Assembly (NCBI GenBank): GCA_964530365.1
Contig: CAZGZY010000001.1
Location: 6,348 to 30,347, forward strand
Length of the DNA: 24,000 bases
Origin: an uncultured Candidatus Saccharimonadales bacterium
Lineage (GTDB): Bacteria > Patescibacteriota > Saccharimonadia > UBA4664
Direction of reading: 5' to 3'
Both the position numbers and the translations under genes were made by a program. Shown here in pieces: positions 3,614-21,393 of this stretch (position 1 is the stretch's first letter; every line of letters begins with the position of its first letter). Under the pieces are notes generated by a model. The model was not told where the DNA came from. It saw nothing but the letters and a program-made list of their open reading frames with translations, and did not search any database.

Positions 3614-3984
3614 TCGGTTGCAGCGTTCTTGTATTCAGTGTATTTTGCATGGTTGCCGCGGGCCTTGTGAGGCGGGTACTTGGCCTCATTTTTGTCGATT
3701 TTGGCGTGGGTGGCGGCGATGAGGTCGATGTCGAAATACTGGCACATGAGTAAGACATTGTAGAATACGTCGGCTAGCTCATCACTCACTGCGGTTTTGT
3801 GCACGCGCAAGTGCTCGGCCATTTCGGCTGGGTTTTTCCAGAGGAAATGCTCGAGCACTTCGGAGGCTTCCAGTGAGAGGGAGATGGCGAGGTCCTTGGG
3901 GTTGTGGAACTGCGCCCAGTCTCGGGCCTCGTTGAAGGCTTTGATGCGGTCGAGTATCGGGCCGATTTGGGAGCCGTTTGTCAT
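3610..3984 (-). CDS. MazG-type nucleoside triphosphate pyrophosphohydrolase (YpjD/DCTPP1-like, single domain)
   Basis: 124 aa all-helical protein with the paired acidic motifs of the MazG fold: SLEASEVLEHF (ExxE) and SDELADVFYNVLLM (ExxD). An N-terminal 'FNEARDWAQFHNPKDL' segment is typical of this family. Last gene of the minus-strand pspC operon. Confidence 0.75.
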   Translation of the reverse strand: MTNGSQIGPILDRIKAFNEARDWAQFHNPKDLAISLSLEASEVLEHFLWKNPAEMAEHLRVHKTAVSDELADVFYNVLLMCQYFDIDLIAATHAKIDKNEAKYPPHKARGNHAKYTEYKNAATD

Positions 3985-4006
3985 TGGCTTTAGTGTAACA
4001 TTTCCG

Positions 4007-4429
4007 CTAATGGCCGCCTTCTACTCGGAAGCCGAGCTGCCGCAGATGCAGGGCCCAGGAGGATTCGAGCGCCTCGGCTTCGGATTGCCGAAAGAAGCAC
4101 GGGAGATGGGCGTAAAGATCGGGCCGGAGGGCGCCCCCGACGCCGCGTTTGAAGATGCGGGCCGCGTGGAAGATGGCCAGGCCGGTGAGGTGTTGTTGCA
4201 GCCGTTCTTCCGGCGTGTACCAGGTTTGGCCAACGTAGACGTGGTTGCTATTGCCGTCTAGCTCGATTACGTAGACGCCGTAGGTGCGGCGGCCGGATAT
4301 GAATTGAGCTCGGGTGATGAGGTTGTAGCCGAATTCGAATTGGTCGCGCAGTCGCTCCACGTAGTCTTCGTGGACGGCGTAACGGTAGAGGCGTTGGGGC
4401 ACGAGGTGTCCCCTCTCGGGCTCGAACAA
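4007..4429 (-). CDS. GIY-YIG-like domain protein (start codon uncertain)
   Basis: GVYVIELDGNSNHVYVGQTWYTPEERLQQH fits GIY-(11 aa)-YVG followed by a conserved Arg/His, with an acidic stretch (SEAEALE) further on. The TTG start at 4429 is the only canonical start, but the frame stays open for 41 more sensible-looking codons up to 4552. Confidence 0.45.
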   Translation of the reverse strand: MFEPERGHLVPQRLYRYAVHEDYVERLRDQFEFGYNLITRAQFISGRRTYGVYVIELDGNSNHVYVGQTWYTPEERLQQHLTGLAIFHAARIFKRGVGGALRPDLYAHLPCFFRQSEAEALESSWALHLRQLGFRVEGGH

Positions 4430-6346: not shown

Positions 6347-8785
6347 ATGGGGCAGCCAAAGGCGAATAACATAACCAGCCCGAAGAAGCGGGCCGATTCC
6401 TGGGAGGGCGTCGGCGTGAGCCAATGGCTGGGGGTGGCTCTTGCCGGAGTTGTGTCGGCATTGTTGTTTGTGGGGCTGACCAAGCTGGGGATGGATTGGC
6501 ACGTTTTTGACTTCCGGTTTAATCCCTACGCGTTGTTCTCGTTGGCGGCGGTCGCCAGCAACCTGGTTTTGTTGGTCCTGATCGGGCGGGTAAAAGAGAA
6601 AACGCACGATATGGTGTGGTTGTCGCTCTACATCACTTGTTTGCTGATGTGGGCGATCGTTGAGTTCTTTACCCGGATTAGCGCCAACACGGAAACATTT
6701 TTGTTCTGGTGGCCGATTTCGACGCTGCCGTCGTTTTTTATGCCCGTCATGCTGTTCATGTTTGTTTTGTCCTACACGAAGCCAAAACAGGGTCGGAACA
6801 TTTGGACTATCGTGCCGTTGTTTGTGGCGGCCATGCTGATGGTGTTCTTTGACCTGCGCACGCCCCTGTTTAACCACTATATCGCCCGGGAGGTGATAGC
6901 GACGCCCTGGAACGGGGCGGTGGCCCCAGGTATTTTTTACAACATGGTGGCGCTATGGATCGTTGGACTTACCGTACTCTCGATTGTGATGCTGGTGCTG
7001 TATTACCGGCGAACTCTGGAACCAACCCTCAAGCGGCAGGCGAGGCTTCTGATTATCGCGACGCTGGTGCCCGTTTCTGTCGGGATTGTGACCGATGCCC
7101 TGTTGCCGGCGCTAGGTATCTTTGACGTCCTGCCGCTGGCGGTGATGCTGACGGCTTTGTCGGGCGCGCTTTACACTTATGCAATTTTACGCTACCGGTT
7201 CCTGACCTTTAGTTCGTCGGTGGTGGCAGCGAATATCCTCGAGACCATCAACGAGGCGGTGATTGGGGTCGGCTCGGATTTGAGTATTAATTACGTGAAC
7301 CAGGGCGCCGAGAATTTATTGGGTTATTCGCGCGGGCAAATGGCAAAGCAGCATTTTAGCGACTTCCTGAGCCAAGATTGGTCCCAGGAGGATCTAAAGA
7401 AGTTCCTGCTTGTCCCCATGGTGCCGGGCCATCGGAGCGAGTTTGGGTCGATCGACTTACGGACGGCTGGGGGCGGGATCTTAACCGTGAAGCTATCCAT
7501 TTCGCAGGTCTCGGAAGACGGCATGCAACGGGGATATTTGGTAGTAATGACCGATATTAGCGAGATGGCCCGGGCCGCCGAGATGGTCGAGAAGGAGGTG
7601 CGGCAACGGACGCGGGAGGTGCGGGAGGCCGAAGCGACGCTCGTGACATCAATTAACAGTTTGAGGCTCGGGTTTATTATTACCAACGCGAAACCCGAGG
7701 TGATCCGGCTCAATACCGTGGCGCATGATTTGTTCTGCGGGAGCCATGAGCACACTGCGGGAGAATGCCGGGAGGTGACAGTCGCGAAGGTTCAGGCGGT
7801 GATGGGCAAGAGCATCGCGGTAGCCCAGGGCATCAACGAGTGTTTGCGGCGGCAATTGCCCAGCGAGTTTAATAATGTGGCTTCCCAGAATCGAAATTGG
7901 CGCGTGTACCTGTCGCCGATGGTGGTGGACCATAAATCGATTGGTTGCGCGGTCTTGCTGCAAGATACGACAGATGAGCAAATCTTGGAGCGTTCCCGGG
8001 ACGAGTTTTTCTCGATCGCCTCCCATGAGTTGCGGACTCCCCTGACCTCAATTAAGGGGAACTCCTCCCTCATCTTGGAGTACTACAAGGATGTCCTAAA
8101 AGACGCGACGCTCAAAGAAATGGTGACCGACATCCATGAATCGAGCGATCGGTTGATTGAGATTGTGAACGATTTCCTTGATGTCTCGCGGTTGGAGCAG
8201 GGTCGGATCGAGTTCCATTTGGAGCAGCTGTTGCTGCCGAAGGTAGTGGAGGAGGTGGCCTATGGGATGGGCGCCCTCATTAAGCAGAAAAACTTGCACT
8301 TGGTGTTGTCGCACAGCTTGGCGCGGTTGGACCAGATACCGGCGGTGGTGGCCGATAAAAACCGCCTGAAGCAAATATTGTTCAACTTGGTTGGCAACGC
8401 GGTTAAGTTTACGAACAAGGGCGGGCGGATCACCATTGGCGCATCGGTGTTGCCCGGGTTTGTTGAGGTGACGGTGGCGGATACAGGAGCGGGCATCTCG
8501 GCTGAATACCAGGCTTTGCTGTTCCATAAGTTTCAGCAGGCCAGCGACAGTATCCTGACGCGGGACTCGTCTAACGGGACCGGGCTTGGTCTGTACATCT
8601 CGCGGCTTTTGGCGGTTGGGATGGGCGGCACGCTTGAGCTTAGGAAATCGGAACTTGGTAAAGGCAGCGTGTTTGCGCTGCGGATATTGCTGGCGACGCC
8701 GGAGCGGCTCAAGCACTTGGGCGACTCGGCCAAGGTGCTTGATACCAAAAGCGGCTTGATGGTCGATAAAGAGTCTAGTAAGTAG
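6347..8785 (+). CDS. Sensor histidine kinase: multi-TM N-terminal sensor, PAS, HisKA, HATPase_c; no receiver domain
   Basis: About 7-8 hydrophobic helices in aa 20-285. A PAS-like segment (ILETINEAVIGVGSDLSINYVNQGAENLLGYSRGQM) is followed by a second sensory domain. H-box FSIASHELRTPLTSI, N-box LKQILFNLVGNAVKFT, G1 DTGAGIS, G2 GTGLGLYISR. GAGGAG lies 5-10 nt upstream of the ATG. Confidence 0.9.
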   Translation: MGQPKANNITSPKKRADSWEGVGVSQWLGVALAGVVSALLFVGLTKLGMDWHVFDFRFNPYALFSLAAVASNLVLLVLIGRVKEKTHDMVWLSLYITCLLMWAIVEFFTRISANTETFLFWWPISTLPSFFMPVMLFMFVLSYTKPKQGRNIWTIVPLFVAAMLMVFFDLRTPLFNHYIAREVIATPWNGAVAPGIFYNMVALWIVGLTVLSIVMLVLYYRRTLEPTLKRQARLLIIATLVPVSVGIVTDALLPALGIFDVLPLAVMLTALSGALYTYAILRYRFLTFSSSVVAANILETINEAVIGVGSDLSINYVNQGAENLLGYSRGQMAKQHFSDFLSQDWSQEDLKKFLLVPMVPGHRSEFGSIDLRTAGGGILTVKLSISQVSEDGMQRGYLVVMTDISEMARAAEMVEKEVRQRTREVREAEATLVTSINSLRLGFIITNAKPEVIRLNTVAHDLFCGSHEHTAGECREVTVAKVQAVMGKSIAVAQGINECLRRQLPSEFNNVASQNRNWRVYLSPMVVDHKSIGCAVLLQDTTDEQILERSRDEFFSIASHELRTPLTSIKGNSSLILEYYKDVLKDATLKEMVTDIHESSDRLIEIVNDFLDVSRLEQGRIEFHLEQLLLPKVVEEVAYGMGALIKQKNLHLVLSHSLARLDQIPAVVADKNRLKQILFNLVGNAVKFTNKGGRITIGASVLPGFVEVTVADTGAGISAEYQALLFHKFQQASDSILTRDSSNGTGLGLYISRLLAVGMGGTLELRKSELGKGSVFALRILLATPERLKHLGDSAKVLDTKSGLMVDKESSK

Positions 8786-9449
8786 CGCTGTCGTACCCGG
8801 AGAAGGTGTCCTGCTTGAGCCGGCGGGCTGGTAGGCTGATGGGCGGCACTAGCAGGCCGATCATGGAGGTGGGCCCAGATACATACACCAGCCGGGTGGG
8901 TAGGTCGGGGATGAGATCGGCCAGGCGGGCGGCCGTGAACGGCTCGGCCTGCTGGGTGAACGTGAGGCCGGTGGGGGCAGCGGCCCAGGCCTGGAGCTCA
9001 GCTGTGAAGGCGGCCGGGGTGTCGTGGCGGGAAGAATAAAACAGCTCGGCGCCCAGCGGGAGGCCCCGGTGGGCCCGGTCTTTGAGCAGACTAAAAAACG
9101 GTGTGATGCCGATGCCTTGGGCCACGAACACGAGCGGCCGGGCGGAGTCTTGCCAGACGAAGTCGCCGGCAGGCTCATCGAGCAGCTGGAGCTCGCCGCC
9201 TACTGGGAGCGCGGCCAGAGCCTGCTTGAAGCTACTAGCGGACAGGCGGGTGGTAATGTGTACAGCTCCCTCGTGCGGGGCTGATGAGATGGTGAAGCGG
9301 CGGCTAGTGCCCGCGAGGTCCGGGTGTGAGTGCGGCAGGCCGACGCGAATAAACTGGCCGGCGGTCCAGCTCAGAGGGGTTTCGGGTTCGAACACGAATG
9401 TCCAGATGTTTCCGGTGATGTGGTGTTTGCGGAGAAGCTTGAGGGTCAC
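8775..9449 (-). CDS. FNR-family FAD/NAD(P)-binding oxidoreductase
   Basis: RRFTISS (the RxYS FAD motif), a GELQLLDEPAGDF barrel end, LVFVAQGIGITPFFSLL (the GxGxxP NAD(P) motif) and YVSGPTSM. The ORF track starts at 9482, but that codon lies inside the terminator hairpin of the upstream gene. I therefore prefer the in-frame GTG at 9449; the start is uncertain. The 3' end overlaps the kinase gene by 11 nt (convergent). Confidence 0.7.
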   Translation of the reverse strand: MTLKLLRKHHITGNIWTFVFEPETPLSWTAGQFIRVGLPHSHPDLAGTSRRFTISSAPHEGAVHITTRLSASSFKQALAALPVGGELQLLDEPAGDFVWQDSARPLVFVAQGIGITPFFSLLKDRAHRGLPLGAELFYSSRHDTPAAFTAELQAWAAAPTGLTFTQQAEPFTAARLADLIPDLPTRLVYVSGPTSMIGLLVPPISLPARRLKQDTFSGYDSATY

Positions 9450-9474
9450 GGTACTATTATGCGCCCGCGCACAC

Positions 9475-9502
9475 AAAAACACCCCGCGGGCGGGGTGTTT
9501 TT
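9475..9502 (-). terminator. Intrinsic terminator downstream of the RRM gene (symmetric A-run/T-run)
   Basis: AAAAACACCCCG-CGGG-CGGGGTGTTTTT. It is a 7 bp GC-rich stem extendable through the flanking A/T runs, located 20 nt after the RRM gene stop (9522). Confidence 0.7.
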
Positions 9503-9868: not shown

Positions 9869-9941
9869 ATGAGATTACGTTGTTGCGGAGTTACCCGCTC
9901 GACTAAACCGACAGGCAAAAGCCTGCTCCAAGATTGAGTCG

Positions 9942-12935: not shown

Positions 12936-13043
12936 AATACCTCCGTAAGTTGCATAAACTATACTCGGAAACGGTTTTGGCTACTAGTGACACGCCTCAC
13001 AGGTCGATGTTTAACTGAGAATTACGCCTTGCTGCTGCTCTTT

Positions 13044-13194
13044 TTCGCAAAAGTCTTTTCTTTGTCGGATTTAGGTGTACTATTTGTACCGTACAATTAG
13101 CATTTGCGACATTTAAATAAACTTTGCATTTTCGATACGTAATAATTTCCAAATTGTATTGCGAAGGGTTGAGCAAAGTTTGTGGGTTTCGCAA
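13044..13194. promoter_or_regulatory. AT-rich divergent control region with four copies of a TTGCGAA/TTCGCAA heptamer
   Basis: TTCGCAA at 13044-13050, TTGCGA(c) at 13104-13109, TTGCGAA at 13159-13165 and TTCGCAA at 13188-13194. The last two form an inverted repeat with a 22 nt spacer, 40 nt upstream of the first gene of the Hyf-like operon. The region is far more AT-rich than its flanks. Confidence 0.3.
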
Positions 13195-13233
13195 GGATGA
13201 TAAGGATAATAGCCACGTAAGGCTGCTCGGTTT

Positions 13234-13776
13234 ATGCGCGCTTTTTTAGCTAAAATTTTGTCGACACCCAAGAGTGTCATACCGGCCAACCAGATCTCTG
13301 AGACTGATCTTGAGGTGACCGAAGTTGGGGCCAAGATCCAAAGTCATGTGAAGCGGCTGTTTGGCGGCTCGCTGGCTATCCGGCAAGTGAACGCCGGTTC
13401 CGATGACGCTGCCGAGCACGAGCTCACGGCTCTCACGAACGCTTTTTACGACGTTGAGCGCTTTGGCGTGCACTTTGTGGCCTCGCCGCGCCACGCCGAT
13501 ATGCTGATGGTAACCGGACCGGTAACGCGCAACATGGCCGAGCCGCTGCGCCACGCCTACGATGCCACGCCTGAGCCGCGCATCGTGGTGGCCGTGGGTG
13601 ACGACGCGATTGACGGCGGGATTTTCCGTGGTTCGTACGCCGTCCACGATGGCGTGGAGCCGGTGATTCCAGTGCATTTTCGGATTCCTGGGGACCCGCC
13701 GTCGCCTAAGGCTATAATGGCTGGCCTACTTGAGATTCTCGGCCGGCTCGAAGTTGCCCGCGGAGAGCACAAATAA
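13234..13776 (+). CDS. hyfI: NuoB/HycG/HyfI-like 'hydrogenase small subunit' homologue, cysteine-free
   Basis: ERFGVHFVASPRHADMLMVTGPVTRNM, GGIFRGSYAV and VIPVHFRIPGDPPSP align with HycG/NuoB. The four cluster-ligand positions read GSDDAAE (vs GSCNGCE), GDDAIDGG (vs GACGNSGG) and PGDPP (vs PGCPP). The whole 180 aa protein contains no Cys. Confidence 0.85.
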   Translation: MRAFLAKILSTPKSVIPANQISETDLEVTEVGAKIQSHVKRLFGGSLAIRQVNAGSDDAAEHELTALTNAFYDVERFGVHFVASPRHADMLMVTGPVTRNMAEPLRHAYDATPEPRIVVAVGDDAIDGGIFRGSYAVHDGVEPVIPVHFRIPGDPPSPKAIMAGLLEILGRLEVARGEHK

Positions 13777-15827
13777 TGCTGTCGGCCCTCGCGAATTCTT
13801 CGAGCTTCCTCGCTCTTATTGGGATCTTTGTGGCCGGCGCGGTCGGCTCGCTCATTGTTCGCCGCAACGACCGTTTGGCCAACAGGTGGGGCAACTTCTT
13901 TGCGATTGTCGGCTCGCTGTGGGGGCTAGCCTTTGCCTCCGCGGTGCTTATTTCGGGCCACAATGTGGCAATACAGGGTATTGTTTCGGACTTTCCCTTC
14001 CTGTCGTTAACGTTTCAGATCGATAAATTGGGCGCGTTCTTCATTCTGGCCATTAGCTTGATCGCGCTGTTTTGCTCGGTTTACGCCGTTGACTACATAA
14101 AGGACTATTACCACCGTTATAGCATTGGCGGCTTGGGCTTCTTCTACAATTTGTTTATTGCCGCGATGGTCCTGGTGGTGGGCGCGGCCAACGGTATCGT
14201 GTTTTTGATTGCCTGGGAAGTAATGTCGTTGGCGTCGTATTTTTTGGTGACCTACGACCGGCGCGACCCCAATAACGTGAAGGCTGGTTATTTGTATTTG
14301 GTGATGACGCACGTGGGGACGGCCTTTATTCTGCTCGCGTTCATTTTGCTCTACGCTTCCACTGGATCGTTCGATTTTGACGCCATTAAGGCCGGTGCCG
14401 CGGCAATGCCGCAATTGCTCAAGGATGCGGTGTTCGGGCTGGCTTTTATTGGTTTTGGCACCAAGGCCGGCGTGATTCCGGTTCACATTTGGCTGCCCTC
14501 GGCCCATCCGGCCGCGCCGTCGCACGTGTCGGCCCTGATGAGTGGCGTGATGATCAAGATGGGCATCTACATGATGGTCCGGATGTTCCTCGATATTCTC
14601 CAGCCCGTGCCAACCTGGTGGGGAGTGGCGGTGCTCGTGGTGGGCGCGGTGTCGTGTGTGCTAGGCGTGCTGTATGCGCTCACCGAGCATGATATTAAGC
14701 GCTTGCTGGCATACCACAGCATCGAGAACATTGGCATTATTTTGCTCGGGGTGGGTGGTGCGCTGGTCTTTTCCTCGCTGCACCTGCCGGCGTTGATGAT
14801 GCTCTCGCTGGGCGCCGCGCTGTTTCACACCCTCAACCACGCCATTTTTAAATCGCTGCTGTTCTTGGGCGCCGGCTCGGTGATCCACGCCATGCATACG
14901 CGCAACATCGAGGAGTACGGCGGATTGGCTCGGCTCATGCCGGTCACGGCGGTGTTCTTCCTGATTGGCTCGATGGCCATCTCGGCATTGCCACCGTTTA
15001 ACGGGTTCTTTAGCGAGTGGTTTACCTTCCAGGCCTTGTTCCATGGCGCAATGTCGGGGGACTTGGTGGTGAAGTGGGCGTTTTTGATCGCGATTGGCGC
15101 ATTGGCGCTCACCGGGGGCCTAGCGCTGGCCTGTTTCGTGAAGGCCTACGGCGCCACTTTCCAGGCCCGCCCGCGCAGTGAGGCCGCCAAACACGCCCAC
15201 GAAGTGCCATTCGGCATGAAGGCCGCGATGGCCGGCCTAGCGCTATTGTGCGTGGCGGTGGGCGCGACGGCCGCGCCGGTGCTCACGGCGCTGTCAGACA
15301 TCGCCCGGCAGGTGGTGGGCGTCCCTCAGGTGGCCGCCATTACCAGCGTTTCGGCCACCCAAGTACTCACTGTGGCTCACGGTTATGCCGCGGTGTGGCC
15401 GCCAGCTTTGCTCGGCCTCCTGTTGGCGGTGCCGATATTGGTGTGGCTGGTGGTGCGCTTTGGCGTGAACGCCAAGCAAAAGGTGGTGATTGGCTCCACC
15501 TGGGACTGTGGCACGGAGTTGACCGAGCGGATGGAGATTACCTCGACCGGCTTTGCTCGCTCAATCATAATGATTTTCCGCGGCGTTCTGAAGCCGACCA
15601 TCCAGCACCAGATCGAGTACGACGACTCCGCTAGCCGCTACATGCCCACATCCCGGACAGTTTCGCTCGGAGTAGACGACGTTTACCACAAGTACTCATA
15701 TGGGCCAATGTATGACTCCGCGGTAGCGGTTTCCCGGTTTATCAAACGTATCCAAAATGGCAACATCAATTCATACGTGTTGTATATATTCATTGTTTTG
15801 GTCATTACCTTGCTGGTGGGAGTGTAG
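13776..15827 (+). CDS. hyfB: HyfB/HycC-like (NuoL/MrpA-type) antiporter-like membrane subunit
   Basis: 683 aa polytopic protein. Motifs: IAWEVMSLASYFLV, GFGTKAGVIPVHIWLPSAHPAAPSHVSALMSGVMIK, LLAYHSIENIG, HAIFKSLLFLGAG and PPFNGFFSEW. The start overlaps the upstream stop (TAATG). Confidence 0.9.
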   Translation: MLSALANSSSFLALIGIFVAGAVGSLIVRRNDRLANRWGNFFAIVGSLWGLAFASAVLISGHNVAIQGIVSDFPFLSLTFQIDKLGAFFILAISLIALFCSVYAVDYIKDYYHRYSIGGLGFFYNLFIAAMVLVVGAANGIVFLIAWEVMSLASYFLVTYDRRDPNNVKAGYLYLVMTHVGTAFILLAFILLYASTGSFDFDAIKAGAAAMPQLLKDAVFGLAFIGFGTKAGVIPVHIWLPSAHPAAPSHVSALMSGVMIKMGIYMMVRMFLDILQPVPTWWGVAVLVVGAVSCVLGVLYALTEHDIKRLLAYHSIENIGIILLGVGGALVFSSLHLPALMMLSLGAALFHTLNHAIFKSLLFLGAGSVIHAMHTRNIEEYGGLARLMPVTAVFFLIGSMAISALPPFNGFFSEWFTFQALFHGAMSGDLVVKWAFLIAIGALALTGGLALACFVKAYGATFQARPRSEAAKHAHEVPFGMKAAMAGLALLCVAVGATAAPVLTALSDIARQVVGVPQVAAITSVSATQVLTVAHGYAAVWPPALLGLLLAVPILVWLVVRFGVNAKQKVVIGSTWDCGTELTERMEITSTGFARSIIMIFRGVLKPTIQHQIEYDDSASRYMPTSRTVSLGVDDVYHKYSYGPMYDSAVAVSRFIKRIQNGNINSYVLYIFIVLVITLLVGV

Positions 15828-15829
15828 TT

Positions 15830-16753
15830 ATGCAGTATTTGTTATGGGCTATTCAAGTGGCGCTCGTGCCGGTAATGTCGCCGCTCATCATCGGTATTAT
15901 CAACAATCTCAAAGCCAAGCTGCAGAAGCGTCAGGGGCCGAGTGTTTTCCAGCCATACCGCAATATCGCCAAACTCTTGCGCAAAGACGAAGTCATTAGC
16001 CGCGACGCGTCGTTTATGACGCGCATTGCGCCGGCCATCGTGTTTGGGGTGACGCTGGTGGTGGGCGCGAGCATTCCGTTGTTCGCGTCGTTTTTGCGGA
16101 CGCCCTCAGGTGATTTGGTTACGGTGGTGTATATGTTGGCTTTGGGGACGTTCTTTCTGGCGCTCGTGGGCATGGACGTGGGCGGCGCGTTCGGGGGTTT
16201 TGGCTCCAGCCGCGAGATGACAGTATCGGCGCTGGCTGAAGGGTCGTTTATCTTCTCGATCTTCGCGCTGGCGCTGGTGTCGGGCGCCACCAACTTGTCG
16301 GCGATTTCTGAGGGCGTCATGAGTAACTACGGCCATTTTTTGGTGCCGGTGGTGCTGGCGTTTATCGGGTTCTTTATTGTGCTATTGGCCGAGACTAGCC
16401 GCTACCCGTTTGATAACCCCGACACCCACTTGGAGTTGACCATGATCCACGAAGCCATGCTGCTTGAGCTGTCGGGTAAGAAATTGGCCCTCATGGAGTG
16501 GGCGGCGGCCAACAAGTTCTTCATTTTTGCCGCGCTGGCCGCGAACTTGTTCTTGCCGTTTGGCATCGCCACGACCGCGACGGTGGGTGGCGTGGTCATC
16601 GGGCTACTCGCGCTCATGGCTAAGTTGCTCGTGATTTGCGTGGTGGTGGCGGTGTTGGAGTCGGTGACGGCCAAGCTGCGGTTCTTCCGCCTTCCCGACT
16701 TGCTCTTGGTGGCGTCTATTTTTAACATCTTCGCGATCGGGTTAATTAAATGA
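15830..16753 (+). CDS. hyfC: HyfC/HycD-like (NuoH-type) membrane subunit
   Basis: 307 aa, the same length as E. coli HycD. The N-terminus SPLIIGIINNLKAKLQKRQGPSVFQPYRNIAKLLRKDEV parallels the HycD/NuoH 'RRGP..LQ.Y.D..KL' segment. Multiple TM helices. Confidence 0.9.
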   Translation: MQYLLWAIQVALVPVMSPLIIGIINNLKAKLQKRQGPSVFQPYRNIAKLLRKDEVISRDASFMTRIAPAIVFGVTLVVGASIPLFASFLRTPSGDLVTVVYMLALGTFFLALVGMDVGGAFGGFGSSREMTVSALAEGSFIFSIFALALVSGATNLSAISEGVMSNYGHFLVPVVLAFIGFFIVLLAETSRYPFDNPDTHLELTMIHEAMLLELSGKKLALMEWAAANKFFIFAALAANLFLPFGIATTATVGGVVIGLLALMAKLLVICVVVAVLESVTAKLRFFRLPDLLLVASIFNIFAIGLIK

Positions 16754-17403
16754 TTATGAACGCGCTCTTCTCCCAGTTTTTCATTACGCTTATTTTCATC
16801 ATGGCGGTTTACTTTCACATCGCAAAAAAGAACTTTAGCGTGGCGGTAATGTATGGGGTGCAGTCGGTGGCGATCGTGGCGCTATTGCTCGCCTCATTCC
16901 TGGAGCGAGGGTCGTTATCGCTCCTGCTGATCGCGCTCGTGACGTTTGTGGTGAAGGTGGTGCTGGCGCCGGTGTTTTTCATGCGGCTTGTAAAGCAGCA
17001 CCAGCTTAAGTTTACGGTGAGCTCATACCTGAGCACCCCGCTCACGCTCGTGATTGTGGCGGCCATCGCGGCTCTGACCAACTCGCGGATCTTTGCTCCC
17101 GTGACGCGCATTATGCCGGCCAATGAGGCCTACTTGGCGCTGGCGCTGTCGGCCATGCTGATCTCGATTTTCCTCATGATTAACCGCAAGAGCGCTTTGT
17201 CGCAAATTGTTGGTATATTGTCGTTGGAAAACAGCATCGTGGCGTTTGCCATTTTTTCCGGCTTGGAGCAGTCCCCAACCTTGCAGCTGGGGATTATCTT
17301 CGACATTTTCGTGTGGTTGATGATCGCGGTGGTGTTTGTGTCGATGATTTACCGCCACTTTGGGTCGCTGGATGTAACCTCTATGAAACACTTGAAGGAC
17401 TAA
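16750..17403 (+). CDS. hyfE: HyfE-like small membrane subunit
   Basis: 217 aa (E. coli HyfE is 216 aa) with 6-7 TM helices. It sits between the NuoH-like and NuoM/N-like genes exactly as in hyf operons. ATGA overlap with hyfC-like. Confidence 0.8.
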   Translation: MIMNALFSQFFITLIFIMAVYFHIAKKNFSVAVMYGVQSVAIVALLLASFLERGSLSLLLIALVTFVVKVVLAPVFFMRLVKQHQLKFTVSSYLSTPLTLVIVAAIAALTNSRIFAPVTRIMPANEAYLALALSAMLISIFLMINRKSALSQIVGILSLENSIVAFAIFSGLEQSPTLQLGIIFDIFVWLMIAVVFVSMIYRHFGSLDVTSMKHLKD

Positions 17404-17406
17404 CCT

Positions 17407-18849
17407 ATGGAACTGTTACTTATCTTCGCGGCTTTCGTTATTGCTGCTGTTACCGGGCTGGTGGCGCGGCGCAAGATCTTTTTTGAAACCGCGTCGGTCG
17501 CTGCGGGGATGGTGGCGCTGGCGGTGTCGGTGGACGTGGCCCTAAAAGTAGCTAGGGGTGGAGCGTACGAGCCGGCGGTATTCTTCTCGGTTGATTCGCT
17601 GGGCGCGATTATGATGCTTATTATTGCCTGCGTGGGGCTAGCCGCTACGGCCTACTCGGTGGCGTATTTGCATCGGGAGCTAGCCAAGGGCATCATTGGC
17701 ATGACCCGGGTGCGGCAGTTTTTTGTTCTCCTGAACGTGTTTTTGGCCGCCATGTTCTTGGCCATTACTTCCAGCAGCCCAATCGTGACCTGGGTTTCGG
17801 TGGAAGCCACTACCCTCTCGACCGCCTTCTTGATTAGCTTCTACAACAAGCCGTCGGCGATGGAGGCAGCCTGGAAGTACCTCATTATCAACTCCGTGGG
17901 CTTGCTGCTGGGCTTTTTTGGCACGCTATTGTACTTCACCTCCATTCACACCTCACTTGCCACCGAGTTTGTGACCTGGCACTCGCTGGCCTACAACGCG
18001 GCGCATTTGGACCCAGTGATTGCCAAGATGGCGTTCATTTTCGTGCTCATTGGTTACGGCACCAAAGTGGGTCTCGCGCCGATGCACACCTGGCTGCCCG
18101 ACGCGCACAGCAAGGCTCCGGTGCCGGTGAGCGCGTTGTTGTCCGGTGTGCTACTCAACGTGGCGCTGGTGGTGGTACTGCGGTTTAAGGTGATTACTGA
18201 CGCCGTAGCCGGCCAGTCGTTCTCGCAGAGCCTGCTGTTGGTGTTTGGGTTGCTGTCGGTGTTGTTCGCGGCGCTGATCATCATGACCCAAAAGAACTAC
18301 AAACGGCTGCTGGCTTACTCGTCAATCGAGAATATGGGCATTATGGCGCTTGGGTTCGGGTTTGGTGGCCTCGGGGTGTTTGCCGCGGTCCTGCACATGA
18401 TCTACCACGCGTTAGTGAAGTCGGCGCTGTTTTTGACCTCTGGCACGATCTTCCTGAAATATAGCTCCACCAAGCTCGTCAACGTGACCGGCGTGCTCAA
18501 GGCGCTGCCGGTGACGGGCGTATTGTTCTTGCTCGGCTTCTTTGCCATTGCCGGCATGCCGCCGTTTGGAATCTTTCTCACCAAGATCTTGATTTTGACT
18601 GCCGGCATTAAAGCCAACCCGGTTGTGGCGGTTGTCGCGTTGCTGCTCGTGGCCGTGTTGTTTATCGGCTTCTTCAAACATGTGTCGGCGATGGTGTCCG
18701 GCGAGAAGCCGGCCGACGTCGCGGCTGGCGAGACGAGCATTTGGCTCATTTTGCCGCCCCTGGCGCTGATTCTGACGGCTCTTGTCTTTAGTATTCATAT
18801 CCCCCAATTCTTACAAACATTGCTGCATGACGCAGCGGCGAGGTATTAA
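17407..18849 (+). CDS. hyfF: HyfF/HyfD-like (NuoM/N-type) antiporter-like membrane subunit
   Basis: Motifs: WVSVEATTLSTAFLI, GYGTKVGLAPMHTWLPDAHSKAPVPVSALLSGVLLNVAL, LLAYSSIENMG, HALVKSALFLTSG and PPFGIFLTKIL. 480 aa. Confidence 0.85.
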   Translation: MELLLIFAAFVIAAVTGLVARRKIFFETASVAAGMVALAVSVDVALKVARGGAYEPAVFFSVDSLGAIMMLIIACVGLAATAYSVAYLHRELAKGIIGMTRVRQFFVLLNVFLAAMFLAITSSSPIVTWVSVEATTLSTAFLISFYNKPSAMEAAWKYLIINSVGLLLGFFGTLLYFTSIHTSLATEFVTWHSLAYNAAHLDPVIAKMAFIFVLIGYGTKVGLAPMHTWLPDAHSKAPVPVSALLSGVLLNVALVVVLRFKVITDAVAGQSFSQSLLLVFGLLSVLFAALIIMTQKNYKRLLAYSSIENMGIMALGFGFGGLGVFAAVLHMIYHALVKSALFLTSGTIFLKYSSTKLVNVTGVLKALPVTGVLFLLGFFAIAGMPPFGIFLTKILILTAGIKANPVVAVVALLLVAVLFIGFFKHVSAMVSGEKPADVAAGETSIWLILPPLALILTALVFSIHIPQFLQTLLHDAAARY

Positions 18850-20417
18850 TGGCTACAATCAATTTGCAACAATATATCCCAGATAGCGCTCAGATGGAGC
18901 AGTATGGCAATGTGGTGGCTTTTGAGGTTCCGACGAGCGAGATTGTGGCGTTGGTGACGGATTGGTACGCTAACCAGCATTTGTCCCTCAAGCTCATTGA
19001 CGCGACCGACGAGACTGCGGACGGCGATGGGTTTAAGGTGTGGTACGTGTTTGGCGTGCCGGGGGCGGCGAAGTTCTTGGCGGCGTATATTCGCATTGGA
19101 AAAGACGGGCAATTCCCGTCTTTGGCCGGCGCGGTACATGAGGCTGGCGCCTACGAGAAGAAGATTCGGACATTTTTCGGGCTCAACCCGGTGGGCTACC
19201 CGGATCCCCGTCCGGCGCTGCTACACGAAAATTGGCCAACCACGCTACATCCGTTGCGCAAGGGCTTTGCCGGTACAATGCGACCCAAAGATGCCCACGG
19301 CACGTATAAGATGCAGGTTGTGGAGGGCGAAGGCATTTACGAGATTCCGGTGGGGCCAATTCATGCCGGCATCATTGGCCCGGGGCACTTCCGGTTTAGC
19401 GTGGCCGGTGAAGAGATTATCTTGCTCGACCCGAAGCTGGGGTGGTCGCACCGTGGCGTTGAGAAGCTGTTTGAAGGGTTTGAGCTGGCCGACCAAATTC
19501 GGTTGTCGGAGAAGGTGTCGGGTGATAGTTCGTTTGGCCACTCGCTGGCATTTTGCCAAGCGGTGGAGGCTCTGGGCGGCATTGCGGTGCCGGAGCGGGC
19601 GAAGTTCCTGCGCGTGATCTACGCCGAGCTGGAACGCCTGGCCAACCACTTTGGCGACATTGGCTTTATTATGCTCGATACTGGTTTCAATTTCGGCGGT
19701 TCTCAGGGTGCGCGGTTGCGTGAGGCTATCATGCAGATCAACGGTCGGCTGACCGGCAGCCGGTTCCTGCGCGGCGTGAACGTGGTGGGTGGTGTGGCTC
19801 GCGATATTACCAAAGACGAGCGCTTGGACTTGCCGCGCGAGCCGCGGATGGCCAAGGATTTCACCGAGCTCATTGAGATCGCCGAGAGTAGCATCTCGGT
19901 GCTAAACCGCCTCAAGGGCACCGGCCGCTTGCCGCGCGACATCGCCGAAGACCATGGCGTGGTAGGCGTTGGGGCTCGGGCGGTAGGCCTGGCAGCCGAT
20001 GTGCGCGCCGACCACCCTTACGCGGCTTATGGCGAGCTGGGGCCAATCGACGTGGCCGTGGAGCAAAGCGGCGACGTGTACGCCCGATTCCGAGTACGGG
20101 TGAAGGAGGTCATTGCCTCGCTGGAGCTCATTCGGGGCGCAGTGGCAGCTCTGCCTGAGGGCGAGATCGTCAGCCGTCACGCGGATAAGCCTCTGGCGAA
20201 GAGCGCGGTGGCCATTGGCTTGGTAGAGGGCTGGCGCGGCGAGATCGCCTACTTTGTGCGTACCGACGCGAAGGGCGCCATTAGCCGGGTGGCTGTGCGC
20301 GACCCTTCGGCCGCCAACTGGCAGGCGGTGCCGTATTGCGCCCCCGGCATGATGGTGCCCGACTTCCCGCTCATCAACAAGAGTTTCAACTTGTCTTACT
20401 CGGGTAACGACCTTTAG
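18849..20417 (+). CDS. hyfG: HyfG/HycE-like (NuoC-NuoD fusion) 'large subunit' homologue lacking Ni-Fe ligands
   Basis: NuoC-like N-domain: YEKKIRTFFGLNPVGYPDPRPALLHENWPTTLHPLRKGF. NuoD/large-subunit core: IPVGPIHAGIIGPGHFRFSVAGEEIILLDPKLGWSHRGVEKL. The L1 motif reads EKVSGDSSFGHS (vs ERxCGxCxxxHS). The C-terminus reads FNLSYSGNDL-stop (vs DPCxxCxxR plus a cleavable tail). Confidence 0.9.
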   Translation: MATINLQQYIPDSAQMEQYGNVVAFEVPTSEIVALVTDWYANQHLSLKLIDATDETADGDGFKVWYVFGVPGAAKFLAAYIRIGKDGQFPSLAGAVHEAGAYEKKIRTFFGLNPVGYPDPRPALLHENWPTTLHPLRKGFAGTMRPKDAHGTYKMQVVEGEGIYEIPVGPIHAGIIGPGHFRFSVAGEEIILLDPKLGWSHRGVEKLFEGFELADQIRLSEKVSGDSSFGHSLAFCQAVEALGGIAVPERAKFLRVIYAELERLANHFGDIGFIMLDTGFNFGGSQGARLREAIMQINGRLTGSRFLRGVNVVGGVARDITKDERLDLPREPRMAKDFTELIEIAESSISVLNRLKGTGRLPRDIAEDHGVVGVGARAVGLAADVRADHPYAAYGELGPIDVAVEQSGDVYARFRVRVKEVIASLELIRGAVAALPEGEIVSRHADKPLAKSAVAIGLVEGWRGEIAYFVRTDAKGAISRVAVRDPSAANWQAVPYCAPGMMVPDFPLINKSFNLSYSGNDL

Positions 20418-20466
20418 CGTTTTCCGAATCGACAAACGCTGCTAAAGCCGGGATAATAATATTGCT

Positions 20467-21393
20467 ATGATTACGTTTTATTATCGCAGTATGCGCGAGG
20501 ACAAGTTGGTTAAGCTGCCGGCGTTTAAGGCCGGGGCGTGGGTGCACGTGGAGGCGCCCAGCCGCGCTGAACTGCAAGGACTCACCGAGAAATTCGGGCT
20601 TGACCCCGACCTTTTGGGCGATGCCCTGGACCCCGACGAGATCCCCCGCGCCGAGGTGGAGGGCGAAGTGGTGTATCTGTATATGCGCTACGCCTACCGC
20701 CAAGGCGACATCGTGGAGACCGACCCCGTGCTGCTGGCCGTGGGCGCTAATTTTGTGGTGACGGTGGCGCGCAATCCGCTGCCCGGCCTGGAGCGGTTCT
20801 TGGCTTCAGCGGTGCTGTTTACGACCCAGCGGGCCAAATTGCTACTGTTGCTCATGAGATACCTGGTGCTCAGCTATGAATCGAATGTGAAGTACCTAGA
20901 CCGCCAGATTCGCGGTGTGCGAGCCAAGATGAACGTGGCAACGGTCAACAACCGCGATTTCGTGCAGTTTGTGGTAATTGAAGACGCCCTTAACTCATTT
21001 TTGGCCGAGCTCGTGCCGGAAACGCTATTGCTCCAGAGCTTGCTGTCGGGCCGACAGAAGCTGACGTTCCACGAGGACGACAAAGACTTAATTGAAGACC
21101 TAGTGCAAGCTACCCGCCAGCTCGATGAATCGAGTCGGTCGAGCTTGCGTACCATCGTGAACATCCGCGAAGCCTATTCGAACATCATGACCAACAACCT
21201 AAACCGGCGCGTGGAATTGCTCACGTCACTGACGGTGGTGCTCACGATCCCGACCATCGTTTTTAGCCTCTGGGGCGTCAATGTGCCGGTGCCAGGCGCC
21301 GGCAATCCCCACGCTTTCGCGTTCTTGGGGATGGGCACTCTGGCGATGATTATCGCCGTGCTGTATTGGTTGTATCGCAGACGCTGGCTGTAA
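20467..21393 (+). CDS. corA: CorA-family divalent-cation channel (GVN variant of the GMN motif)
   Basis: Cytoplasmic alpha/beta plus coiled-coil region, then LTVVLTIPTIVFSLWGVNVPVPG, a second TM helix and the basic tail YRRRWL. This is the canonical CorA C-terminal architecture. It lies 49 nt downstream of hyfG-like on the same strand. Confidence 0.85.
   Translation: MITFYYRSMREDKLVKLPAFKAGAWVHVEAPSRAELQGLTEKFGLDPDLLGDALDPDEIPRAEVEGEVVYLYMRYAYRQGDIVETDPVLLAVGANFVVTVARNPLPGLERFLASAVLFTTQRAKLLLLLMRYLVLSYESNVKYLDRQIRGVRAKMNVATVNNRDFVQFVVIEDALNSFLAELVPETLLLQSLLSGRQKLTFHEDDKDLIEDLVQATRQLDESSRSSLRTIVNIREAYSNIMTNNLNRRVELLTSLTVVLTIPTIVFSLWGVNVPVPGAGNPHAFAFLGMGTLAMIIAVLYWLYRRRWL

Follow-up and report, generated by a model that had tools for sequence, protein, structure and literature searches.

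The window is the whole stretch of 24,000 nucleotides analysed, from an uncultured Candidatus Saccharimonadales bacterium. Positions 13234-20417 hold six tightly coupled genes on the + strand, in the order NuoB-like, HyfB-like, NuoH-like, HyfE-like, HyfF-like and a NuoC+D/HycE-like fusion (Table 1). The junctions are TAATG at 13776 and 18849, ATGA at 16750 and gaps of 2-3 nt elsewhere. The subunits were assigned by Pfam and NCBIfam profile matches and the cofactor sites by alignment to solved structures; the ORFs and profile matches confirm the gene content, coordinates and junctions given in an earlier note on this DNA. An intergenic region separates the cluster from a divergent carbamoyltransferase gene and is presumed to hold the cluster promoter. 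A scan of this region for consensus sigma-70 promoters gave no match. It contains the motif TAGGTGTACTAT..CGTA.AA, which is common to the upstream region of locus L085 in an alignment of upstream regions. A 7TM-PAS histidine kinase is encoded near the cluster in the window and in loci L005 and L008.

Table 1. Features of the six-gene cluster and its upstream region (positions in the window)
Feature	Position	Strand	Basis
Intergenic region, 298 bp, AT-rich, presumed promoter region	12936..13233	+	Sequence and upstream alignment
NuoB/HycG-type small subunit, 180 aa	13234..13776	+	PF01058, E=3e-23
Stretch with the four former N2-ligand codons	13402..13695	+	Positions computed from ORF start
HyfB/NuoL-type antiporter-like subunit, 683 aa	13776..15827	+	PF00361; NF005086
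NuoH/HycD/HyfC-type subunit, 307 aa	15830..16753	+	PF00146, E=6e-40
HyfE-type membrane subunit, 217 aa	16750..17403	+	PF00420; NF008556
HyfF/NuoM-N-type antiporter-like subunit, 480 aa	17407..18849	+	PF00361; NF005044
NuoC+NuoD / HycE-type large subunit, 522 aa	18849..20417	+	PF00329 + PF00346

The small subunit contains no cysteine, as the earlier note had stated. Alignment to MbhJ (6cfw_J) and HycG (7z0s_G) places Asp57 (codon 13402-13404), Ala60 (13411-13413), Asp124 (13603-13605) and Asp154 (13693-13695) at the ligand positions of the N2 [4Fe-4S] cluster. Three of the four cysteines are thus replaced specifically by aspartate, and these residues are kept across the family: among the 120 closest small subunits, Asp occurs at position 57 in 106, at 124 in 118 and at 154 in 104, and the adjoining Asp123 is invariant. 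Position 60 retains a cysteine in 97 of the 120, the total absence of cysteine being confined to the window genome and a minority of relatives. Acid-rich replacements of the N2 ligands recur among representatives of clusters at 50% identity.

The large subunit aligns at residue level with HycE (7z0s_E, E=1.5e-73), and its C-terminus coincides with that of the mature hydrogenase. The HycE motifs RVCGICGF and DPCYSCTD become KVSGDSSF and NLSYSGND. The four Ni-Fe cysteine positions are therefore occupied by Ser224, Ser227, Ser516 and Gly519, in agreement with the Ser/Ser and Ser/Gly pairs reported before, and no ligand cysteine was found at a shifted position in the alignments. The quinone ligands of complex I (Nqo4 His38 and Tyr87) correspond to Ile176 and Gly225. 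The window protein is the most derived of 120 large subunits, with eight deviations at conserved columns that include a lineage-specific Glu177 to Gly change (codon 19377-19379) at an otherwise universal position, whereas the membrane subunits of the window deviate at 0-1 conserved columns. This difference suggests, from conservation patterns, that the core function lies in the membrane arm.

The charged residues of the membrane arm are intact. The HyfB-type subunit matches NF005086, 'hydrogenase 4 subunit B', with 693 bits (cut-off 667 bits), and its Glu148, Lys230, Lys261, His351/His355, Lys359 and Glu414 are 93-100% conserved. The NuoH-type subunit conserves the acidic residues Glu129, 137, 188, 202, 208, 213, 223 and 277, which are taken by homology to be the counterpart of the complex I 'E-channel'. 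Lys69 and Glu160 are conserved in the HyfE-type subunit, which has a NuoK-like C-terminal half, as are Glu133, Lys220, His330/His334 and Lys338 in the HyfF-type subunit. Membrane charged residues are 91-100% conserved in the clades with and without the N2 cysteines.

No real ORF of the whole window carries a CxxCxxCxxxC motif, the sole match being a stop-to-stop stretch of 22 codons, and hyp, hycI and formate dehydrogenase domains were not found in its other ORFs; the absences listed earlier hold for all window ORFs. No HycF-type or electron-input gene is co-located at the loci lacking the N2 cysteines (N2-less loci). A HycF/NuoI-type gene is often missing from clusters of the energy-converting hydrogenase-related (Ehr) kind, and ferredoxin subunits are present in some sister Ehr clades that keep N2. 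Group-3-type NiFe hydrogenase genes lie 9 kb away in one N2-less neighbourhood.

The assignment to Ehr stands. The large subunit bears the signature SGD(S/T/N/E) ... SYSGNDL instead of CGxC ... CYSCxD and groups with the Cys-less Ehr of Nitrospira, Methanoperedens, Methanomassiliicoccales and Rokubacteria (41-49% identity), whose clusters have the same gene set. In the tree, the locus falls within a monophyletic branch of Ehr complexes, mainly from the ultra-small Patescibacteria (CPR). The loss of N2 maps to one monophyletic clade and is thereafter maintained; all sampled Ehr clusters outside the CPR-type branch keep the four cysteines. Within the N2-less clade the ligand patterns are TEGD/SEGD, TCDD, DCDD and DADD, D-C-D-D being the commonest. 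The loss of the NuoB cluster without a ferredoxin subunit, first noticed in the window, is thus real. Judging by the sampled sequences, the loss of N2 characterises the CPR-type clade as a whole and is no chance event in a single genome. The N2-less and N2-containing clades are separated by three fixed differences only (R45G and C154D in the NuoB-like subunit, D353N in the NuoCD-like subunit).

The earlier note had also left room for a known family with exactly this architecture. In part there is one: Ehr clusters ordinarily have these six genes and no HycF, and a clade of Cys-less large subunits from CPR bacteria has been published (Jaffe et al. 2020, PMC7304191). Neither the N2 loss nor the ATP synthase linkage described below was found in published work. 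Beside that linkage, only the N2-less state appears new, together with the total lack of redox sites that results when it is added to a Cys-less large subunit.

Genes of the F1Fo ATP synthase flank 11/47 N2-less loci and 0/43 N2-containing Ehr loci (Fisher p=6e-4); by chance, with a genome size taken as 1 Mb, adjacency is expected at about 2% of loci. The 47 loci comprise 37 from species-representative genomes (six atp-flanked) and 10 more fetched with 10-kb flanks (five atp-flanked). L008, a Saccharibacteria locus placed together with the window in the tree, has the whole cluster inserted between atpG and atpD, separated from them by 5 and 24 nt. In L077, the genes directly upstream of the cluster are an additional atpB-E-F set, whose c subunit is of the H+ type, and the main atp operon encodes a Na+-type c subunit (ESTGIY), a pair whose motifs would fit H+/Na+ interconversion. 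In linked loci the atpC-to-B gaps of 108-250 nt suggest a separate promoter region for the cluster in most cases. The association with ATP synthase operons narrows the range of possible driving forces, a point raised in the earlier note.

Ni-Fe ligands, N2 ligands and a ferredoxin-type ORF are all missing, which points to ion movement free of electrons. The reading preferred here, given a probability of about 40%, is that the complex is a cation/proton translocator that needs no redox reaction and cooperates with the ATPase, with the acidic former N2 pocket acting as a protonation or cation switch. The six genes would encode an Ehr-kind membrane complex that has wholly abandoned electron transfer. 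The two antiporter-like, the NuoH-like and the HyfE-like subunits keep the full buried Lys/Glu/His chain by which complex I, MBH and Mrp transport ions, and this chain would move ions here. The complex would be driven by existing ion gradients, or interconvert them, as an Mrp-like secondary transporter or gradient converter, unlike a redox pump. Its partner would be the F1Fo ATP synthase; in organisms without an electron transport chain, ATP hydrolysis by this enzyme is assumed to set up the proton gradient. Such chains are reportedly missing in Patescibacteria (Beam et al. 2020, PMC7507113). The NuoB-like and NuoCD-like subunits may be retained to cap or gate the ion path by their conformation. 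The conserved carboxylates of the former N2 cavity (Asp57, Asp123, Asp124, Asp127 and Asp154) would bind a cation or titrate with the cytoplasmic pH, in place of the N2 redox switch. The direction and identity of the ion, the gating by this pocket and the cooperation with the ATPase are what we infer from these residues and gene neighbourhoods.

Several observations speak against a translocator. About 700 peripheral residues are kept, at 54-59% mean pairwise identity, in genome-reduced bacteria; Mrp antiporters do without a peripheral arm, so that the role of the arm here probably goes beyond capping the ion path. The MrpB/E/F/G-type subunits, which are tied to Na+ handling in Mrp, MBH and MBS, are missing. 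In addition, atp genes are missing from the window, which covers 13 kb upstream and 3.6 kb downstream of the cluster, and most atp-linked clusters, as noted, seem to be served by a separate promoter.

A decaying, functionless remnant of a hydrogenase or Ehr operon might be suspected from the loss of every cofactor ligand and from the window large subunit, which lost Glu177 and deviates more than its 119 relatives. This is exceedingly improbable: the six ORFs are intact and translationally coupled in the window, and none of the six is disrupted in any of the complete N2-less loci examined (about 47 loci, many candidate phyla). Mean pairwise identities in the N2-less clade are 0.59 for the NuoB-like, 0.54 for the NuoCD-like and 0.44-0.56 for the membrane subunits, with a similar picture in the N2-containing clade; 71/180 small-subunit and 183/522 large-subunit columns are at least 95% conserved. 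By these measures selection is strong, not relaxed, and acts on both arms, peripheral and membrane, to the same degree. It is quite improbable that the complex is still redox-active, either through another metal centre at a carboxylate/thiolate site (e.g. mono- or dinuclear Fe or Mn) or through an unlinked Fe-S or flavoprotein partner that docks and passes electrons to some acceptor. The non-random N2 replacements, conserved Asp/Glu with one Cys in 97/120, make a plausible hard-metal site; sister Ehr clades with N2, some with ferredoxin subunits, imply a probably redox ancestral function, and the group-3-type hydrogenase genes 9 kb away in one neighbourhood would agree. On the other hand, the ligand set is not fixed, the window having no Cys and basal members showing S-E-G-D or T-E-G-D; the Ni-Fe site, quinone ligands and relay cluster are missing from all six proteins; no Fe-S or flavin gene is conserved near the clusters in the loci examined; and no 3-Asp/1-Cys iron-sulfur site is known to us. 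Very unlikely, too, is a gradient consumer, in which an ATPase-made H+/Na+ gradient drives a task of the peripheral arm, or a complex that senses or regulates membrane energisation or the ATP synthase. The atp linkage, including the insertion within an atp operon, the conserved peripheral arm and the nearby histidine kinase would suit it, but none of the six subunits matches an output, DNA-binding or enzyme domain in Pfam or NCBIfam, and two complete antiporter-like modules are costly for a sensor.

A primary ion pump is rather unlikely. The former Ni-Fe pocket (Ser224, Asp226, Ser227, His231, Glu177 and Ser516) would bind and convert a cytoplasmic substrate, and non-redox chemistry or ligand binding there would drive a conformational change that pumps ions, from which the neighbouring ATP synthase would make ATP. 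The pocket residues are 94-100% conserved in the N2-less clade, the constraint on the peripheral arm equals that on the membrane arm, and an atp operon followed by the cluster is a layout suited to generator and consumer of one gradient. Complex-I-type modules coupled to non-redox chemistry have a precedent in the CO2 hydration of CupA/NDH-1MS and DabAB. However, the catalytic metal ligands are missing, there is no candidate substrate and no conserved accessory enzyme gene was found near the clusters in the loci examined. The window large subunit, with the most deviations of 120, lacks Glu177, an unexpected loss if this pocket powered the pump; the pocket is also common to all other Ehr, including those that carry N2, and so is no adaptation to cofactor loss. 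If the complex did prove to be a primary pump, it and the ATP synthase would make up a minimal chemiosmotic system of one generator and one consumer, in bacteria regarded as purely fermentative.

The cluster consists of six closely spaced genes on one strand (table), with junctions that agree with those described in the earlier note: TAATG at 13776 and 18849, ATGA at 16750 and gaps of 2-3 nt otherwise. The note had interpreted the genes as a module of the energy-converting-hydrogenase-related type (Ehr) with no recognisable redox-cofactor site and no evident electron path. The ORFs, the Pfam and NCBIfam searches, the structure-based alignments and a motif scan all bear this out. The cluster is a member of the known Ehr kind, and a variant in which no redox site is left. 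The fold of both peripheral subunits is settled by their homology to the solved structures of HycG, MbhJ and HycE.

Genes of the Ehr-like cluster in the window and their family matches
Product	Position	Strand	Domain or family match
NuoB-type small subunit	13234-13776	same strand as other five	PF01058
HyfB-like subunit	13776-15827	same strand	NF005086 (693 bits vs cut-off 667); PF00361
NuoH/HycD-like subunit	15830-16753	same strand	PF00146
HyfE-like subunit	16750-17403	same strand	PF00420, NF008556
HyfF-like subunit	17407-18849	same strand	PF00361
Large subunit, NuoC+NuoD fusion of the HycE kind	18849-20417	same strand	PF00329 plus PF00346

The large subunit aligns to E. coli HycE (7z0s_E, E=1.5e-73), and the four positions of the Ni-Fe cysteines are occupied by Ser224, Ser227, Ser516 and Gly519, as had been claimed. 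The HycE segments RVCGICGF and DPCYSCTD read KVSGDSSF and NLSYSGND, and the Ni-Fe CxxC motifs L1 and L2 that define group 4 hydrogenases are missing. Ligands at shifted positions are excluded, the only two cysteines of the protein (236 and 497) being both off the ligand positions. The Ser/Ser/Ser/Gly replacement is common to 119-120 of the 120 closest homologues. The protein carries the Cys-less Ehr motifs SGDx ... SYSGNDL and terminates at ...SGNDL, with no C-terminal extension. These pocket motifs are found in all Ehr, and depart from those of true hydrogenases solely at the ligand positions and their direct neighbours. In place of His38 and Tyr87, the quinone ligands of Thermus Nqo4, the alignment shows Ile176 and Gly225.

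The small subunit, as previously noted, contains no cysteine at all, which rules out displaced ligands for N2, the [4Fe-4S] cluster of NuoB-type subunits. Its best matches among solved structures are HycG (2.6e-27) and MbhJ (3e-28). In the alignment to MbhJ (6cfw_J) and HycG (7z0s_G) the N2 ligand positions are Asp57, Ala60, Asp124 and Asp154, the motif GSCNGCE being changed to GSDDAAE, GACxxGG to GDDAIDGG and PGCPP to PGDPP. The four-cysteine site of the proximal [4Fe-4S] cluster, which is a criterion for group 4 hydrogenases, is absent. A conserved carboxylate cluster sits where N2 would be: among the 120 closest small subunits, position 57 is Asp in 106, Thr in 11 and Ser in 3, position 124 is Asp in 118, position 154 is Asp in 104 and Asn in 16, and Asp123 is invariant. 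Position 60 holds the sole surviving cysteine of the former N2 site, present in 97 of these 120 proteins (Ala in 14, Glu in 4, others in 5), and is Ala in the window (13411-13413). The nearest small subunit, P0122, with 75% identity, retains Cys60, and the total loss of cysteine is therefore recent in the window lineage. Covariation of Cys60 with Cys61 of the large subunit, considered as the mark of a possible inter-subunit site, showed no consistent pairing. A wider search, among 1.84 billion cluster representatives, found 150 proteins with E<=1e-30; 88 of them are CCCC, and about 25 of the complete ones carry acid-rich replacements. Five NuoB-like representatives of 234-272 aa (P0447, P0462, P0472, P0486 and P0503) show DDDS, DEDS, DVDS or TDES at the N2 positions and may be further, separate N2-less lineages.

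The claims on other cofactor genes held as well. The motif CxxCxxCxxxC is absent from every real ORF in a six-frame scan of the whole window; the only match is an out-of-frame stretch of 22 codons, and a hidden ferredoxin ORF was discarded. Domain searches detected no hyp, hycI or formate dehydrogenase genes in the 24 kb. The remaining window genes encode a PIF1-type helicase, an ABC transporter, MazG-like, PspC and LiaF-like proteins, a 7TM-PAS histidine kinase, a weakly matched FNR-like NAD-binding protein, a histidine phosphatase, MetK, a carbamoyltransferase, CorA and an S49 peptidase. The sole redox-flavoured gene is the 235-aa ORF at 8775-9482 (-), with a weak match to the oxidoreductase NAD-binding domain PF00175 (E=2e-5). 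Encoded on the opposite strand, it is 3.7 kb upstream of the cluster and has no counterpart near the related loci.

Three further features concern the surroundings and possible regulation of the cluster. A histidine kinase with an N-terminal 7TM region and a PAS domain is encoded a few kb at most from the cluster, both in the window (6347-8785, +) and in the related loci L005 and L008; it is a possible regulator, and no adjoining response regulator was seen in the window. A gene for a CorA-type Mg2+ channel (20467-21393, +) begins 50 nt downstream of the cluster. A role of CorA as a general functional partner, supplying Mg2+ to the acidic pocket, was rejected: the gene is equipped with a promoter-like site of its own (TCGACA-17-GATAAT, 20429-20457), and no CorA homologue adjoins any of the 80 related loci, which makes the adjacency particular to this genome. 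The region upstream of the cluster gave zero Rfam matches in the search for a conserved RNA element. These upstream regions do not align among loci, except for one motif of about 28 nt, TAGGTGTACTAT..GT..CGTA.AA, which is shared only by the window (13075-13110) and locus L085 (about 9880-9910) and may be a lineage-specific promoter or operator.

Relatives of the cluster were collected by scanning one genome per species, which gave more than 591 loci with relatives, and 80 of them were kept. The six-gene set of the window recurs in these 80 loci. For both peripheral subunits and for MetK, the nearest homologues that bear a name are labelled Patescibacteria (CPR), namely Saccharimonadales/Saccharimonadia, Paceibacterota, Magasanikiibacteriota, Gracilibacteria and the like, and on this ground the window is assigned to Patescibacteria, probably Saccharimonadia. 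The order HyfB-H-HyfE-HyfF-CD is constant in all complete loci, with the NuoB-like gene either first (CPR, and genomes labelled Rokubacteria, Acidobacteriota, Chloroflexia, Bdellovibrionales and Thermoleophilia) or last (Nitrospira, Methanoperedens, Methanomassiliicoccales, Brocadia and Bacillota). Only three of the scored loci are true hydrogenases (Brocadia, Thermincola and Planctomycetota), with CCCC at both sites, and all others have S-x-S-G in the large subunit. The N2 ligands are CCCC in all 37 small subunits recovered from N2-containing Ehr and in the three from true hydrogenases. On the other hand, the window and all 25 CPR-type small subunits show D/T/S-C/E/A-D/G-D/N. When the loci were scored one by one, N2 was lost only in the clade of the window, with the patterns DCDD, TCDD, DADD, SEGD and TEGD.

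A ferredoxin-type component is variable in the family. The Ehr of Methanoperedens and Methanomassiliicoccales contain a gene of about 110 aa for a 2x[4Fe-4S] protein between CD and B, and the same domain is fused to B in some Bacillota-labelled Ehr loci and in the three true hydrogenases. The clusters of Nitrospira and of the Rokubacteria group include no ferredoxin gene. The absence of any such gene extends to many N2-containing Ehr clusters (the Nitrospira- and Rokubacteria-type loci and L052, L064, L076 and L080), where N2 then stands alone, with no relay.

A neighbour-joining (distance) tree was built from the NuoD-like part, with the true hydrogenases as root and no support values. In it the N2-less sequences form one clade, with TEGD/SEGD basal and DCDD/DADD in the crown, which suggests that N2 was lost a single time. 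In this same tree the clade is sister to the Ehr of Rokubacteria, Acidobacteria, Chloroflexia and Nitrospira, and the window large subunit groups with the Saccharibacteria locus L008. N2-less CPR-type clusters also occur on genomes with other labels (L002, L007, L012, L021, L023-L026, L028, L029 and L032), which include Firestonebacteria, Fibrobacteria, Ignavibacteria, Thermoleophilia, Bdellovibrionales and Thermodesulfobacteriota; these reflect either lateral transfer out of Patescibacteria or errors of binning or labelling. Locus L007 carries two clusters on one contig (62-5711 and 10505-15708), one of CPR type with 54-63% identity across the subunits and, 5 kb downstream, a distant second one with 28-39%.

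Selection acts as strongly on the peripheral arm as on the membrane arm. The mean pairwise identity within the N2-less clade is 0.59 for B, 0.54 for CD, 0.56 for H, 0.52 for HyfF, 0.49 for HyfB and 0.44 for HyfE, and the N2-containing clade follows the same pattern (B 0.61, CD 0.48). Only three fixed differences separate the two clades: R45G and C154D in B, and D353N in CD. In both clades the buried charged residues show 91-100% conservation; they comprise Glu148, Lys230, Lys261, Lys359 and Glu414 of the HyfB-like subunit, Glu133, Lys220 and Lys338 of the HyfF-like subunit, eight Glu of the NuoH-like subunit, and Lys69 and Glu160 of the HyfE-like subunit.

The N2-less clusters are linked to ATP synthase. 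The 354 ORFs flanking 37 N2-less loci were clustered into families, and subunits of the F1Fo ATP synthase (atp) were the only meaningful recurrent neighbours. ABC exporters, a sigma factor, type IV pilus genes and a histidine kinase appear in 3-8 loci only and at variable positions, and were rejected as conserved accessory genes. The atp genes flank 6/37 N2-less versus 0/43 N2-containing loci. In L008 (1-13377) the six Ehr-like genes are placed inside the operon, between atpB-E-F-H-A-G and atpD-C, on one strand and with gaps of 5 and 24 nt. In L010, L020 and L030 atpC is found just upstream of the cluster. L077 (Moraniibacteriota) has an extra atpB-atpE-atpF set directly upstream (2436-4157) and a complete second atp operon downstream (13095-20099). 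The c subunits adjoining the cluster are of the H+ type, whereas the c subunit of the downstream, main operon of L077 bears the signature ESTGIY and a helix-1 Glu, which we take to be Na+-type by the Ilyobacter motif.

Ten further loci, reached through their small subunits and selected only by the length of available sequence, were inspected with 10-kb flanks. The operon atp(I)BEFHAGDC lies directly upstream on the same strand in four of them (L081/L082, L085, L087 and L091), and L088 has it downstream and convergent. The flanks of the other five are free of atp genes. With a chance expectation of about 2% per locus, assuming a 1-Mb genome, the probabilities are P ~7e-7 for the 37-locus sample and ~3e-5 for the ten-locus sample, values that ignore phylogenetic non-independence, though the arrangements vary by lineage. 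Taken together, the linkage is found in 11/47 N2-less versus 0/43 N2-containing loci (Fisher p=6e-4, again with phylogenetic non-independence ignored). No atp genes occur within the 24 kb of the window. Three other neighbours of N2-less clusters were recorded: a pair of group-3-like NiFe hydrogenase genes 9 kb upstream (L089, 1-1464), a heliorhodopsin gene 10 kb upstream (L083, 12-797) and a small gene with a Pro_CA_2 domain between the cluster and atpC (L088, 17258-17596).

One reference on Ehr is Marreiros et al. 2013. The literature defines Ehr by the Cys-less large subunit and calls their function unknown. The window agrees with Ehr, including the described Geobacter complex, in its gene set (HyfB-, NuoH-, HyfE- and HyfF-like subunits with a NuoCD-like large and a NuoB-like small subunit), in the Cys-less motifs, with 41-49% identity of the large subunit, and in its placement in the tree (no support values). 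It differs in that the sampled non-CPR-type Ehr keep the four N2 cysteines, and some add a 2x[4Fe-4S] subunit or a B-fused ferredoxin, none of which is found in the clade of the window, and in the atp genes, often beside the clusters of this clade. Retention of N2 is a feature of every non-CPR-type Ehr sampled and, in the portions of the literature available here, apparently lies outside the published definition. A monophyletic CPR group within Ehr, lacking the metal-binding cysteines and one that 'likely cannot interact with H2', is reported by Jaffe et al. 2020 (BMC Biol 18:69, PMC7304191). The window large subunit almost certainly belongs to this clade. The sections of the paper covered here are confined to the large subunit and its phylogeny and make no mention of the NuoB-type cluster, the missing electron path, the Asp replacements or the atp linkage. 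The large subunit has been described before. For the loss of N2 in the clade and the linkage to ATP synthase, a full-text search of the available literature found no report, and an earlier priority is possible.

The hydrogenases Hyc/Hyf, MBH and Ech share the modular architecture, HycE, HycG and MbhJ being the best structure matches and the HyfB model scoring above its curated cut-off. They differ from the window in having the Ni-Fe cysteines, N2, ferredoxin subunits (HycF/HyfH or HyfA) and HyfD, and no formate dehydrogenase or hyp/hycI genes lie in the window. Formate hydrogenlyase-2 (Hyf) comprises the Fe-S subunits HyfA, HyfH and HyfI, three antiporter-like subunits (HyfB, D and F) and an associated formate dehydrogenase; the window has only HyfB-, C-, E- and F-like proteins with the large and small subunits, and neither Fe-S motifs nor FdhF. 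With complex I (Nuo/NDH-1) and the photosynthetic NDH-1 the cluster shares the L-shaped module logic, and its products include counterparts of NuoB, C, D, H, K and L/M/N. However, the window contains no NuoE/F/G, NuoI, NuoA or NuoJ genes, no N2 and no quinone His/Tyr, and its proteins score far below the cut-offs of all NCBIfam Nuo equivalog models. The Mrp (Mnh/Sha) antiporters are redox-independent and possess PF00361 subunits, a NuoK-like subunit and conserved Lys/Glu chains. Their seven subunits (MrpA-G) include none of the NuoH-, NuoB- or NuoD-like kind, in contrast to the NuoH-, NuoB- and NuoCD-like subunits of the window, where MrpB/E/F/G have no match and only the PF00361 and PF00420 modules are common. 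Mrp is the closest functional analogy for the mechanism proposed here, as opposed to a family to which the cluster would belong.

Sites for Ni-Fe, N2, relay clusters and quinone are all absent from the complex, whose ion-path residues are intact. The favoured reading, to which a probability of about 0.4 is given, is a redox-independent cation/proton translocator. The complex would act on a gradient made or used by the ATPase, and its conserved coupling apparatus would be switched at the former N2 pocket, by protonation or by a cation. That the ion-path residues are conserved agrees with redox-independent cation/proton antiport, and is no proof of it. The main weakness of this translocator model is the question of why a mere antiporter keeps about 700 well-conserved peripheral residues. 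A primary pump, powered by non-redox chemistry in the pocket that all Ehr conserve, is unlikely. A PF00361-type subunit is coupled to a reaction other than electron transfer in the cyanobacterial NDH-1MS/CupA and in the DabAB/MpsAB inorganic-carbon pumps. These systems rely on a carbonic-anhydrase-like partner with a zinc site, whereas no such partner is conserved here, the Pro_CA_2-domain gene being near one locus only.

A cryptic redox enzyme would have either a non-Cys metal site or an unlinked partner, and is considered improbable. A gradient-consuming or regulatory device is rated slightly lower still. Decay has some particulars of the window on its side. Its large subunit shows 8 deviations over 183 highly conserved columns, the maximum of the 120 homologues (median 2), and residue 177 is Gly (GGC, 19377-19379) where 119/120 relatives, and all aligned representatives inspected, true [NiFe] hydrogenases included, have Glu. 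A simple sequencing error does not account for it, two changes being needed to turn GGC into a Glu codon. The four membrane subunits of the window, on the other hand, have 0-1 deviations at conserved columns, and conservation across relatives contradicts pseudogenisation of the cluster, which leaves decay scarcely credible.

A wider, tentative reading is that of a whole complex-I-type branch in which the last Fe-S cluster was swapped for a conserved carboxylate pocket and which, with zero electron transfer, would form a two-part chemiosmotic circuit with the F1Fo ATP synthase in Patescibacteria. In one version the complex would be an ATP-powered converter of H+ and Na+ gradients, with the former N2 site as a gate that responds to pH or cations. 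In the other, non-redox chemistry in the former Ni-Fe pocket would power a primary pump.

If either version is true, a switch of protonation, cation or ligand can trigger the coupling of complex I in place of N2 or quinone reduction. It has long been asked of complex I how the N2/quinone site can drive the translocation of ions at a distance of tens of ångströms. The N2-less clade is a natural variant that has no redox centre and keeps the whole coupling apparatus, namely the NuoB/D/H interface, the acidic residues of the NuoH-like subunit and the antiporter-like Lys/Glu chains, and thus offers a clean system for the minimal trigger of the mechanism. Given the three fixed differences between the clades, the core activity of all Ehr may depend less on electron transfer than has been assumed, which would concern other bearers such as Nitrospira, ammonia oxidisers, Methanoperedens and M. 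tuberculosis. Patescibacteria account for much of bacterial diversity and reportedly have no electron transport chains. The N2-less variant is conserved across them and linked to ATP synthase, and an ion-translocating complex of this kind, repeatedly associated with the atp genes, bears on how these bacteria energise their membrane and control pH and sodium.
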